DNA of 64,000 nucleotides, from contig CM000150.2 of the NCBI GenBank assembly GCA_000004695.1, forward strand, positions 2,336,001 to 2,400,000, read 5' to 3'. Positions 10,148 to 12,685 of this stretch are shown in pieces (position 1 is the stretch's first letter; every line of letters begins with the position of its first letter). A program made the position numbers and the translations under genes. Under the pieces are notes generated by a model. The model was not told where the DNA came from, did no database searches, and worked only from the letters and a program-made list of their open reading frames with translations. The DNA is from Dictyostelium discoideum. Lineage: Eukaryota.

Positions 10148-12685
10148 ATGAATGATATCAATAATAACAATGTAAATAACAATAACAATAAAAATCATAT
10201 AAATTATAATATTGATGTAATAAGATCAAATTTTATAATATTGAAATCATTAGCTGAATCAATTAAACCTTCTTTTGGTCCAAATGGGATTTCAAAAATA
10301 ATAGTTGACGATAAATCAAAATCGTAAAGTATTATTAATACTTATAATTTATTATTACTTTTAAAATTTTTTTTATTATTATTCTATTTTCAATACCTAA
10401 AAAAAAAAAAAAATAAAAAGTTAAAAAAAAAAAAATTAATTAATTAATTAATAATCCATTAATTTTAATGATTTTGGATATTATTTATTTTTATTTTTTG
10501 TGGTGAAAAAAAAAAAAAGATATTTATCTGGTGTGTGGTTTTTTTTTTTTATCTCATCTTTTTATTCTTTTTCAAAAAAATAAAAAAAAAAAATTTAAAA
10601 GAATAAGATTTATTTGAATGTGTTAAATTTTAAAAAAAAAACCAGCAAAATAAAAATAAAAAAAAGATTGACCAAATTTCATTATATTTATTTGGTGGAG
10701 ATTTAATTAAATACTAATTAATTTATTTAAATTTTAATTTCCATTTTTTTTTTTTTTTTTTTTTTTTTTTGTGATTTATTAATTGATTAAAATCTAATGA
10801 ATTATTTAGAGTAATAATTAGTTCAGATGGGTTCGTTATTTTGAAATATTTTAAAATAAAACACCCAATTGGTAAATTAATAAAGCAACAATTTCTAAAT
10901 CAAAGTTATCTATTATATGGTGGAGTTTCAACATCTCTACTATTATCTTCTTCATTAATGGAGAATGCATTGAATCTATTATATAAAGGATTGGATTTAA
11001 ATTCAATTATAAGTGGTTATAAAATTGTAAATATACACCTACACAAAACAATTTAATATTGTTATTATTATTTTTTTTGGATTTTTAGGTTAAAATAATT
11101 TTAATAATAATAATAAAACTAAACTTTACTAATTTTATAATATTTAATATCTTTTTTTAAAAAAAAAATAATAAAAAAGAGTTTAAATTATTCCCTAAAA
11201 TATCTAAATGAAATGAAATCTATTAAATTAGATATTAAATTAAATGAAGATAATAATTTAAATAAAGATAATTTATTAAATATATTTAATATTATAGTTC
11301 AAGAAAAAGGAACAGAATTAAATAATAATGACTACTTAGTTTTAAAAGATATATTATCAGATTCATTAATTTCACAAAATCATTCAAAGAAATCAATTGA
11401 AACTAAATTGAATAATATAAACATTTCAATTGATCAAATTTATCAATATAGTGATTTTGAAATTAACAACAATGAAACATTATCAAAATTTGGTTTTAAA
11501 AATTATACAAATAATCAAATATCAACAACAACAACATCAAAAATTTTATTAATTGAAAATGGTCTAATAGTTGATAAAAATTATTGTTGTAGTTATTTAA
11601 ATGAAATTAAAGAAGAGGGGAATAATATTAATATATTATTTTTAGATTGTTCATTATCAAGAGACCAATCAAATATGCAAATTCAAGTTGAATTAGATTC
11701 ACCTGAAAAATTATTAAATTGGAAAATTGATGAAGAGAATTATTTTAAACAATTAATTACAACAATTATAAATGAATTACATGTAAATACAATAATATGT
11801 ACTGGTGATATTGATCCATTAGCACTTCATTATATTGATCAATTTAAAATTTTAGCATTTAAATTTGTACCATATTTAATATTTAAAAAATTATCATTAT
11901 CAACTGAAATAATTTATCATTTAAATTTAGATTCAATTTTACAAAATAAAAATAAAATAGTTTCAAAACATTATGAAAAAATAATATTAAATCCATTACA
12001 AACTATACTTTGTGAAAGTAGAAATTATTATTTTAAATTAAATCCACAACAACAACAACAACAACAACAACAACAACAACAACAACAACAACAACAACAA
12101 CAACAACAACAACAACAACAACAACAACAACAACAACAACAACAACAACAACAACAACAACAACAACAAAATAATAACAATAGAGATGATGCTGAAATAG
12201 AAATACAAAAAACAATTATAATATTATCAGAAACATATTTTCAATCTCAAGAATTAAAAAGATATTGTCAAGATCTTTTAATGGGTTTAAAATTATTAAA
12301 TAATAATAATAATAATACATTAAATTTTAATGAAAATGAAAATGAAAATAAAGAAATTTCAAATAAATATTACATTTTAGGTGGTGGAGAAGTTGAAAAG
12401 GTAATTGTAAAAAGTTTATTAGATATGTCACAACAAGAATCTTCAATTTTAAAATACAGTATTGAATCTTTTTCAAATTCATTTCAATCATTATTGTGTA
12501 TTTTAAAACTTGCCAAACCAACAGAATTATCACAAAAACAATTAATCTCACCTATAATATATGACAATTATTTTTTAAAAAAAAAACAAATTATTGATTC
12601 AACAAATTTGGTTCTTACTTTACTCAAAGGTAATGTGTTTTATTTTTTATTTTATATTTTTTTATTTTTTATTATATTTTACTAA
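10148..12685 (+). CDS. Divergent group II chaperonin (CCT/TCP-1-like) paralog, about 632 aa; exons 10148..10323, 10810..11026, 11180..12685 (a further short 3' exon after the GTAATG at 12629 is possible)
   Basis: Motif-by-motif collinearity with CCT subunits: SFGPNGISKIIVD (LGPKGMDKM); SSDGFVILKYFKIKHPIGK (TNDGATILK..HPAAK); YGGVSTS (GDGTTS P-loop, degenerate); IISGYKI; TIICTGDIDPLALHYIDQ (ILTTGGIDD.a.HYl); YILGGGEVE (VPGGGAvE); C-terminal IDSTNLVLTLLK (ILRIDDiI). Two GTAAA(G/T) introns are phase-consistent. A 40-residue polyQ is inserted between the apical and equatorial parts. Confidence 0.7.
12047..12168 (+). repeat. (CAA)n about 40 units, coding polyQ inside the CCT-like gene
   Basis: Perfect CAA triplet run visible at 12047..12168. 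Confidence 0.95.

Follow-up and report, generated by a model that had tools for sequence, protein, structure and literature searches.

A dictyostelid chaperonin-like gene family related to CCT8/theta and degenerate at the ATP site

The chaperonin CCT/TRiC normally consists of a fixed set of eight subunits, and to our knowledge the ciliopathy chaperonin-like proteins BBS6, BBS10 and BBS12 are the only CCT offshoots that have been well studied. The ATP motifs of these BBS proteins are degenerate, and the proteins are not believed to have a folding activity of their own (PMC5534436), while within CCT itself the subunits CCT6 and CCT8 hardly bind ATP and active-site mutations are tolerated in the yeast complex (PMC9704529). 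Here we analysed a gene located in a stretch of 64,000 nucleotides of Dictyostelium discoideum AX4 chromosome 1 (hereafter the window; assembly GCA_000004695.1, contig CM000150.2, positions 2,336,001 to 2,400,000), which encodes an additional, highly divergent CCT-like protein. Together with its dictyostelid orthologues this protein forms what we call family D, and we consider it probable that the family represents a theta-derived, non-hydrolysing chaperonin-like accessory protein.

A previous study (PMC10074162, iScience 2023) described DDB_G0268902 as the single D. discoideum chaperonin that falls outside all CCT families, labelled it BBS12-like and reported archaeal thermosomes as its best hits outside Dictyostelia. 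The window gene is very likely DDB_G0268902, since the published description fits it exactly and the only other non-canonical CCT gene that we found in AX4 carries a different identifier, DDB_G0284247. Our literature search retrieved no further paper naming DDB_G0268902 and none naming DDB_G0284247, and primers that another study lists for the cloning of css2 (DDB_G0268928) had no match in the window. The oddity of the gene is already in print and is not new. What we add is a corrected gene model, a distribution that is both dictyostelid-wide and dictyostelid-only, the loss of the ATP site throughout the family, an affinity to theta over a BBS12-specific one, and a second extra paralogue derived from eta.

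A maintained gene with orthologues across the Dictyostelia

The locus is an intact, AT-rich, selectively maintained, spliced gene. Four exons on the plus strand (10148-12735) join into an open coding sequence of 1872 nt, whose product has 623 amino acids. The original prediction had let the gene run from 10148 to 12685; its start is right, but 12685 is a read-through stop inside intron 3 and the true end lies at 12735, after a fourth exon of 29 nt. The chaperonin motifs that it had listed are all present after splicing, in the order it gave. The C-terminus obtained by joining exons 3 and 4, LLKVNDIIKENP, agrees with those of the orthologues from Tieghemostelium (...LLQINDLIVI) and Polysphondylium (...LLKVNDILSI), the three proteins having in common an xNDxI motif in the C-terminal helix for which CCT-theta has the equivalent VDQII.

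Comparison with a sister genome (GCA_054859385.1, locus L001) showed that all splice sites and the 29-nt mini-exon are kept, as are the ATG and the GTAAAG donor of exon 1, with exons 97.7-100% identical and introns 78-92% identical. Intron 1, which is unusually long, is 90.9% identical between the two genomes and is flanked by exons at 97.7-99.1%; its counterpart in D. purpureum is also long (~666 nt), and in this species introns 1 and 2 interrupt identical codons. No Rfam family was found when intron 1 was searched for an RNA gene. Over 584 codons, AX4 and the sister genome differ by 17.5 synonymous and 19.5 non-synonymous changes, which gives a ratio of non-synonymous to synonymous substitution rates (dN/dS) of 0.25. 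The base composition of the gene is typical of Dictyostelium, and all dictyostelid lineages examined have kept an intact frame and intact splice sites. The AX4 product was absent from a collection of 5.8 billion protein clusters, both as an exact match to any of three gene models and by homology search; RabT1 (XP_647054), which is identical to the product of the window open reading frame (ORF) at 29532-30197, was present there.

As the original prediction had proposed, the protein is an extra and highly divergent relative of CCT. A hidden Markov model search, which it had suggested as a check, matched Pfam PF00118 (Cpn60/TCP-1) with 135.7 bits and E=2.6e-39, at a gathering score of 34.3 and thus far beyond chance, and the same domain is present in all orthologues. 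Sequence search of the PDB returned thermosomes first (2.5e-26), followed by CCT alpha, theta and epsilon. The eight TIGRFAM models for the individual subunits (TIGR02340-02347) gave the window protein between 30.7 and 107.5 bits against cut-offs of 455.9-800.2, with the orthologues behaving alike, and the thermosome models (NF041082, NF041083 and TIGR02339) gave 108.9-113.6 bits against cut-offs of 400-671. By these scores the window protein is not one of the eight canonical CCT subunits. We also considered that it might correspond to the CCT-like domain of PIKfyve and rejected this, as PF00118 is the only real Pfam domain and conserved start and stop codons bound the gene; the remaining Pfam matches are sub-threshold and all fall on the Q/N-rich tract.

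A word-indexed protein search yielded four hits, its candidates being swamped by Q/N-rich words, with orthologues in the sister genome labelled D. discoideum, in D. purpureum and in Tieghemostelium lacteum. It was replaced by an exhaustive search in which the orthologue profile was run over the full set of 1.84 billion representative proteins, and which added members from Polysphondylium violaceum (3e-86), a EukProt dictyostelid (2e-42), Cavenderia fasciculata (DFA_07391, 2e-30) and Heterostelium album (PPL_11423, 2e-29), together with a fragment (P0198). No family member was detected outside Dictyostelia among these 1.84 billion proteins. Down to E=1e-29 all hits are dictyostelid members except the archaeal P0144 (2.4e-43), a double-length tandem thermosome that owes its inflated score to the presence of two chaperonin copies, and a plateau of single thermosomes and theta sequences starts at 6e-26. 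Judged by this search, members occur in every major group of dictyostelids and are not detectable elsewhere, in agreement with the lineage specificity that had been suggested.

A predicted group II fold with a degenerate ATP site

An alignment of four orthologues gave an AlphaFold2 (AF2) model with a predicted local distance difference test score (pLDDT) of 37, which was unusable; we therefore used an alignment of 71 sequences including theta, thermosome, eta and the second dictyostelid paralogue, and the resulting model reached a pLDDT of 81.8 and a predicted template modelling score (pTM) of 0.80. Foldseek aligned this model over ~626 columns, full-length, with TRiC subunits and thermosomes in the PDB (E around 1e-22); human CCT8 (chain Q) took the first three places, with small margins between ranks. 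In the model the window protein keeps the complete equatorial-intermediate-apical fold of group II chaperonins, including the lid helix (H306-331). Short insertions relative to canonical sequences occupy residues 149-155, 199-217 and 237-248, a polyQ/N tract residues 421-470 and an N-rich loop residues 508-526; about 22 conserved columns of the C-terminal equatorial domain are deleted, and the protein has no counterpart of the canonical N- and C-terminal tails.

Constraint within the family is strongest in the N-terminal equatorial domain with its stem-loop hairpin for subunit-subunit contacts, and in the apical lid helix. Mean pairwise identity is 49% in the N-terminal equatorial domain and 33% in the apical domain, the polyQ and N-rich loops are essentially unconstrained, and the invariant positions include D315, E316, E317 and K321 of the lid helix, G340, D343, Q488 and K491. 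This pattern fits a role in protein-protein interaction.

The polyglutamine (polyQ) tract had been predicted as (CAA)40 at the join of the apical and equatorial domains. We counted 41 uninterrupted CAA codons (Q421-Q461), and these lie instead where the apical domain passes into the intermediate domain, flanked by the final apical strand (YYFKLN) and by TIIILSE, the intermediate-domain strand equivalent to 'TILLRG'. No orthologue has the tract: the sister genome reads QQQQNDNNKNN, with four Gln, and the others have nothing at the site. Proteins of D. discoideum frequently contain stretches encoded by long CAA and AAT repeats, and several such tracts are visible in neighbouring ORFs of the window. 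From these comparisons the polyQ is specific to AX4 and appears to be a recent CAA expansion at strain or species level in an insertion-tolerant surface loop, and not a functional hallmark.

The phosphate-binding loop (P-loop) reads YGGVSTS, as originally noted, and aligns column for column with the GDGTTS of thermosome, theta and eta, with Gly replacing Asp and Val replacing the first Thr. No GDG/DGT-type loop exists in any reading frame of positions 9500-13500, and the degenerate loop is located centrally within exon 2 and is kept in the orthologues; therefore other exon joins cannot restore a canonical site. The catalytic Asp, equivalent to D386 of Mm-cpn, is replaced by Gln in seven of the seven family members, within the motif Q-[EQD]-[LF]-K-[RK] (Q488 in the window protein), and the GGG loop has been lost in D. 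purpureum, Tieghemostelium, Polysphondylium, Cavenderia and Heterostelium. Degeneracy is thus family-wide and stronger in the basal groups (Table 1). Because all seven members have Gln at the catalytic position, ATP hydrolysis is very unlikely anywhere in the family, which agrees with the possible lack of hydrolysis suggested at the outset, and nucleotide binding appears unlikely in the basal groups.

Table 1. States of the ATP-site motifs in canonical chaperonins and in family D
Motif	Canonical	Groups 4 and 3	Cavenderia / Heterostelium (groups 1 and 2)
P-loop	GDGTTS	YGGVST / HGGVSS	NNGLLK / DSNQLT
Catalytic Asp	D/E in (D/E)ExER	Gln	Gln
GGG loop	GGG(A)xE	intact in D. discoideum only	lost
GPxG and DG	present	present	lost

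Affinity to CCT8/theta and alternative explanations

Among eukaryotic subunits, the evidence points to theta. Profile-profile comparison with hhalign scored family D at 319 against thermosome, 266 against theta (466 columns, full-length), 190 against the DDB_G0284247 family and 149 against eta. Of the eukaryotic TIGRFAM models, that for theta scores highest in all six members tested, and the FGPNG motif of the family is theta-like. Within the 150 best hits of the exhaustive search, the plateau held 109 thermosome-like and 32 theta-like proteins and none that fell to the eta profile, theta being the only eukaryotic CCT class seen in a classification by local profiles for theta, thermosome and eta only, with TIGRFAM spot checks. 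A neighbour-joining tree (Scoredist distances, 512 columns, 200 bootstraps) recovered family D, BBS12 and theta each as monophyletic with 100% bootstrap, and united theta, family D, BBS12 and two orphan proteins in a clade with 84.5%. It is well supported by these sequence and model comparisons that the family belongs to a theta-centred group, in which the BBS chaperonins have also been placed (PMC10074162), and that its nearest eukaryotic relative is CCT8/theta.

Family D resembles CCT8/theta (TIGR02346) in its best eukaryotic model, its top Foldseek hits, its FGPNG and (T/S)SD motifs and its clade. It differs from it in scoring far under the cut-off of 455.9 (107.5 bits for the window protein, 56-137 bits for six members), in an identity of only ~22%, in branching outside the monophyletic theta clade, in having neither the P-loop Asp and Thr nor the catalytic Asp and, mostly, no GGG loop, and in its inserted loops and the deletion in the equatorial domain.

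These features suggest the following scenario. A gene of theta type would have been duplicated no later than in the dictyostelid ancestor, and the duplicate would then have lost its dependence on nucleotide, giving rise to a nucleotide-independent 'pseudo-chaperonin'. Such a protein could serve as a binding, scaffolding, adaptor or holding partner, most likely together with CCT subunits or clients and not as a subunit that takes part in the power stroke, in parallel to the role that has been proposed for BBS6, BBS10 and BBS12, which derive from CCT and assemble the BBSome jointly with it.

Several points weigh against this accessory role. The accessory or scaffold function is proposed by analogy with the BBS proteins, and the link to DDB_G0268902 is inferred from a published description. 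D. discoideum itself keeps GPNG (GPxG), SSDG (the Asp65 of NDG) and GGGEVE (GGG), so that species of group 4 may still bind nucleotide weakly. The input alignment contained theta, thermosome and eta sequences, which influence the AF2 model and may bias the Foldseek ranking; our tree, built from distances, covers two CCT subunit classes (theta and eta) and, of the BBS proteins, only amniote BBS12, and all divergent lineages in it are long branches. Finally, a published maximum-likelihood tree put DDB_G0268902 next to animal BBS12, as its sister or basal to it, 'with good support' (PMC10074162).

The protein could instead be an alternative ring subunit, occupying the CCT8/theta position of a specialised TRiC that might be specific to a stage or a client, possibly with the eta-derived DDB_G0284247 at the neighbouring position. 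Such a subunit would account for the theta affinity, the full fold, the conserved N-terminal equatorial domain with the stem-loop that makes intra-ring contacts, and the co-occurrence of an eta-derived second paralogue across Dictyostelia, and it would be compatible with the theta active site being dispensable in yeast CCT (PMC9704529). The deletion of ~22 equatorial columns, the missing terminal tails, the inserted loops and the low identity to theta are difficult to reconcile with ring assembly, which similar insertions in BBS proteins are taken to preclude (PMC5534436). We regard this explanation as unlikely.

Somewhat less likely still is the published suggestion that the gene is a true orthologue of animal BBS12, repurposed after the dictyostelids lost their cilia. 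There are likenesses: as BBS12, BBS6/MKKS and BBS10 do, family D has a divergent PF00118 domain outside the eight CCT families, appears to be theta-related and combines a degenerate ATP-hydrolysis motif with lineage-specific insertions (PMC5534436). Both lineages fall inside the theta-centred clade, both lack the P-loop Asp and have Gln at the catalytic Asp column, both show 'SK(I/F)I' after GPxx, and the placement in the published tree favours this reading. However, family D matched BBS12 with an hhalign score of 52 (E=1e-5) over 113 N-terminal columns only, which is no better than that of BBS12 against eta (51), whereas the best partner of BBS12 is theta, at 115. The BBS12 set consisted of amniote database sequences, retrieved with a human bait sequence 98% identical to gorilla BBS12. 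An exclusive clade of family D and BBS12 obtained 19% bootstrap, the P-loop changes differ (YGGVST versus RTGTST) and are offset, and GGGAVE is kept in BBS12 and mostly lost in family D. Moreover, the exhaustive search found no family member in other amoebozoans or in ciliated protists, confining the family to a host that has neither cilia nor BBSome; the absence of cilia from Dictyostelia was already noted by the authors of the suggestion, who themselves advised caution (PMC10074162). Long-branch attraction between the two lineages is a sufficient explanation for their pairing. Overall, our comparisons with amniote BBS12 reveal no specific affinity and do not support the 'BBS12-like' label.

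Extreme divergence, the loss of all catalytic motifs and unconstrained N and Q insertions might also be expected of a decaying or functionless relic, a CCT duplicate on its way to becoming a pseudogene, but the intact frame and splice sites across Dictyostelia, the low dN/dS, the better conservation of exons than of introns and the persistence of blocks of invariant residues make this improbable. Horizontal acquisition of an archaeal thermosome gene has hardly any likelihood: thermosomes give the highest raw profile and PDB sequence scores and have the same three-domain fold with built-in lid, but such scores are expected because thermosomes sit near the ancestral consensus, and the gene has lost the ATP site, contains three spliceosomal introns at positions conserved among dictyostelids, is Dictyostelium-like in composition and theta-like in its FGPNG, groups with thermosomes in 0% of bootstraps as against 84.5% for the theta-centred clade, and has no archaeal affinity in the published tree (PMC10074162).

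A second paralogue, the surroundings of the gene and implications

The original prediction assumed eight canonical subunits plus one extra gene; the extra gene stands, but the count was too low, as D. discoideum has a second non-canonical CCT paralogue outside the window. This gene, DDB_G0284247 (P0024), is found across the dictyostelids (orthologues P0004 and P0025-P0033) and is eta-derived, scoring 269 bits with TIGR02345 against a cut-off of 669 and joining eta, as family E, with 65% bootstrap. It resembles the window gene in encoding an extra PF00118 protein across Dictyostelia, with Gln at the catalytic Asp and N-rich insertions. In contrast to family D it retains GDGTTS, NDGATIL and GGGG, and for this reason it probably still binds nucleotide.

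DDB_G0284247 is a possible partner of the window gene product. The Dictyostelia could conceivably have evolved an accessory pair and kept it throughout their history, composed of the theta-derived, nucleotide-blind protein and the eta-derived one. Cross-linking studies have indicated that theta and eta occupy adjacent places in TRiC, and the two proteins could therefore pair as a theta/eta-like heterodimer. This dimer would either be built into a variant form of the ring or work on its own, independently of ATP, as a holdase or adaptor. We offer the idea as speculation, no likelier than orthology with BBS12.

Two orphan eukaryotic theta-like chaperonins (positions 3001-5000 of locus L002, from the JGI metagenome 3300057248, and P0217) are those that fell into the clade of theta, family D and BBS12, and they may be other independent theta offshoots. 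An orphan sequence, P0247, reads LGPNGLSKLIVD...ISADGATIL...GDGTSS...LRNWKIDENN, with its gene split into three calls on the contig.

The sister genome used above, although labelled D. discoideum, has ~90% nucleotide identity to AX4 over positions 9001-14000 of the window, intergenic sequence included, and other 'D. discoideum' strains differ too, ACTFIW for example having 92% protein identity in DDB_G0284247. On these identities, such divergent 'D. discoideum' assemblies look like cryptic sister species more than strains.

Elsewhere in the window, two opposite-strand pairs of tRNA genes lie between 30931 and 35090, and ORFs accompany two further tRNA genes (Table 2). An ORF of 444 amino acids (54879-56213, plus strand) starts ~440 nt upstream of the tRNA-Asn, and its product is identical to proteins encoded at many AX4 loci on several chromosomes; it is probably the ORF1 of a tRNA-targeted retroelement of TRE5 type. 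In the region 62343-63847, another ORF, of 402 amino acids and with no Pfam domain, lies ~220 nt downstream of the tRNA-Lys, and may belong to a TRE3-like retroelement, a type that targets the downstream side of tRNA genes. When translations were judged by eye, a 4540-aa ORF (35552-49174, minus strand) showed a helicase-like P-loop region and a nucleotidyltransferase-like C-terminus, with many repeats of a ~400-aa module ahead of both; by the same inspection the module seems to recur in the upstream minus-strand ORFs 49670-50935 and 51060-53186, and extremely long polyQ, polyN and polyT tracts occur within 35552-53186 on this strand.

Table 2. Coordinates of the gene, its motifs and the tRNA genes in the window
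Feature	Position	Strand	Remarks
Exon 1	10148..10323	+	start ATG at 10148, N-rich tail, first equatorial helix
FGPNGISKI	10274..10300	+	exon 1
Intron 1	10324..10809	+	486 nt, GTAAAG...TTTAG, 12% GC
Exon 2	10810..11026	+	99.1% identical to sister genome
ISSDGFVILK	10817..10846	+	exon 2
YGGVSTS	10916..10936	+	exon 2, degenerate P-loop
IISGY	11006..11020	+	exon 2
Intron 2	11027..11179	+	153 nt, GTAAAT...AAAAG, 77.9% identical to sister genome
Exon 3	11180..12629	+	intermediate and apical domains, lid helix, most of C-terminal equatorial domain
WK.DEE..K	11720..11740	+	exon 3, invariant, lid helix
ICTGDIDP	11795..11818	+	exon 3
(CAA)41 microsatellite	12047..12169	+	Q421-Q461, loop between apical and intermediate domains
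SQELKRY	12245..12265	+	exon 3, Gln488 in place of catalytic Asp, Gln codon 12248-12250
LGGGEVE	12377..12397	+	exon 3
C-terminal LLKVNDIIKENP	12620..12732	+	spliced exons 3/4
Intron 3	12630..12706	+	77 nt, GTAATG...AAAAG, in-frame stop at 12685
Exon 4	12707..12735	+	29 nt, finishes ...LLK-VNDIIKENP, stop codon 12733-12735, 100% identical in sister genome
tRNA-Glu(UUC)	30931	+	pair on opposite strands
tRNA-Glu(UUC)	32297	-	pair on opposite strands
tRNA-Gln(UUG)	34125	-	pair on opposite strands
tRNA-Gln(UUG)	35018	+	pair on opposite strands
tRNA-Asn	54364..54438	-	
tRNA-Lys	62343..62417	+	

A conserved, theta-derived family with a dead ATP site in a host that has no cilia would suggest that CCT subunits can be recruited repeatedly as nucleotide-independent modules, and Dictyostelium would offer a genetically tractable system in which to ask what pseudo-chaperonins do. 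If the heterodimer proved true, it would constitute a cilium-independent and independently arisen parallel to the metazoan BBS6/10/12-CCT system. The family may also serve as a caution against speaking of a 'BBS12 orthologue in a non-ciliated amoeba', a description that, taken literally, would place the origin of BBS12 before the animals.

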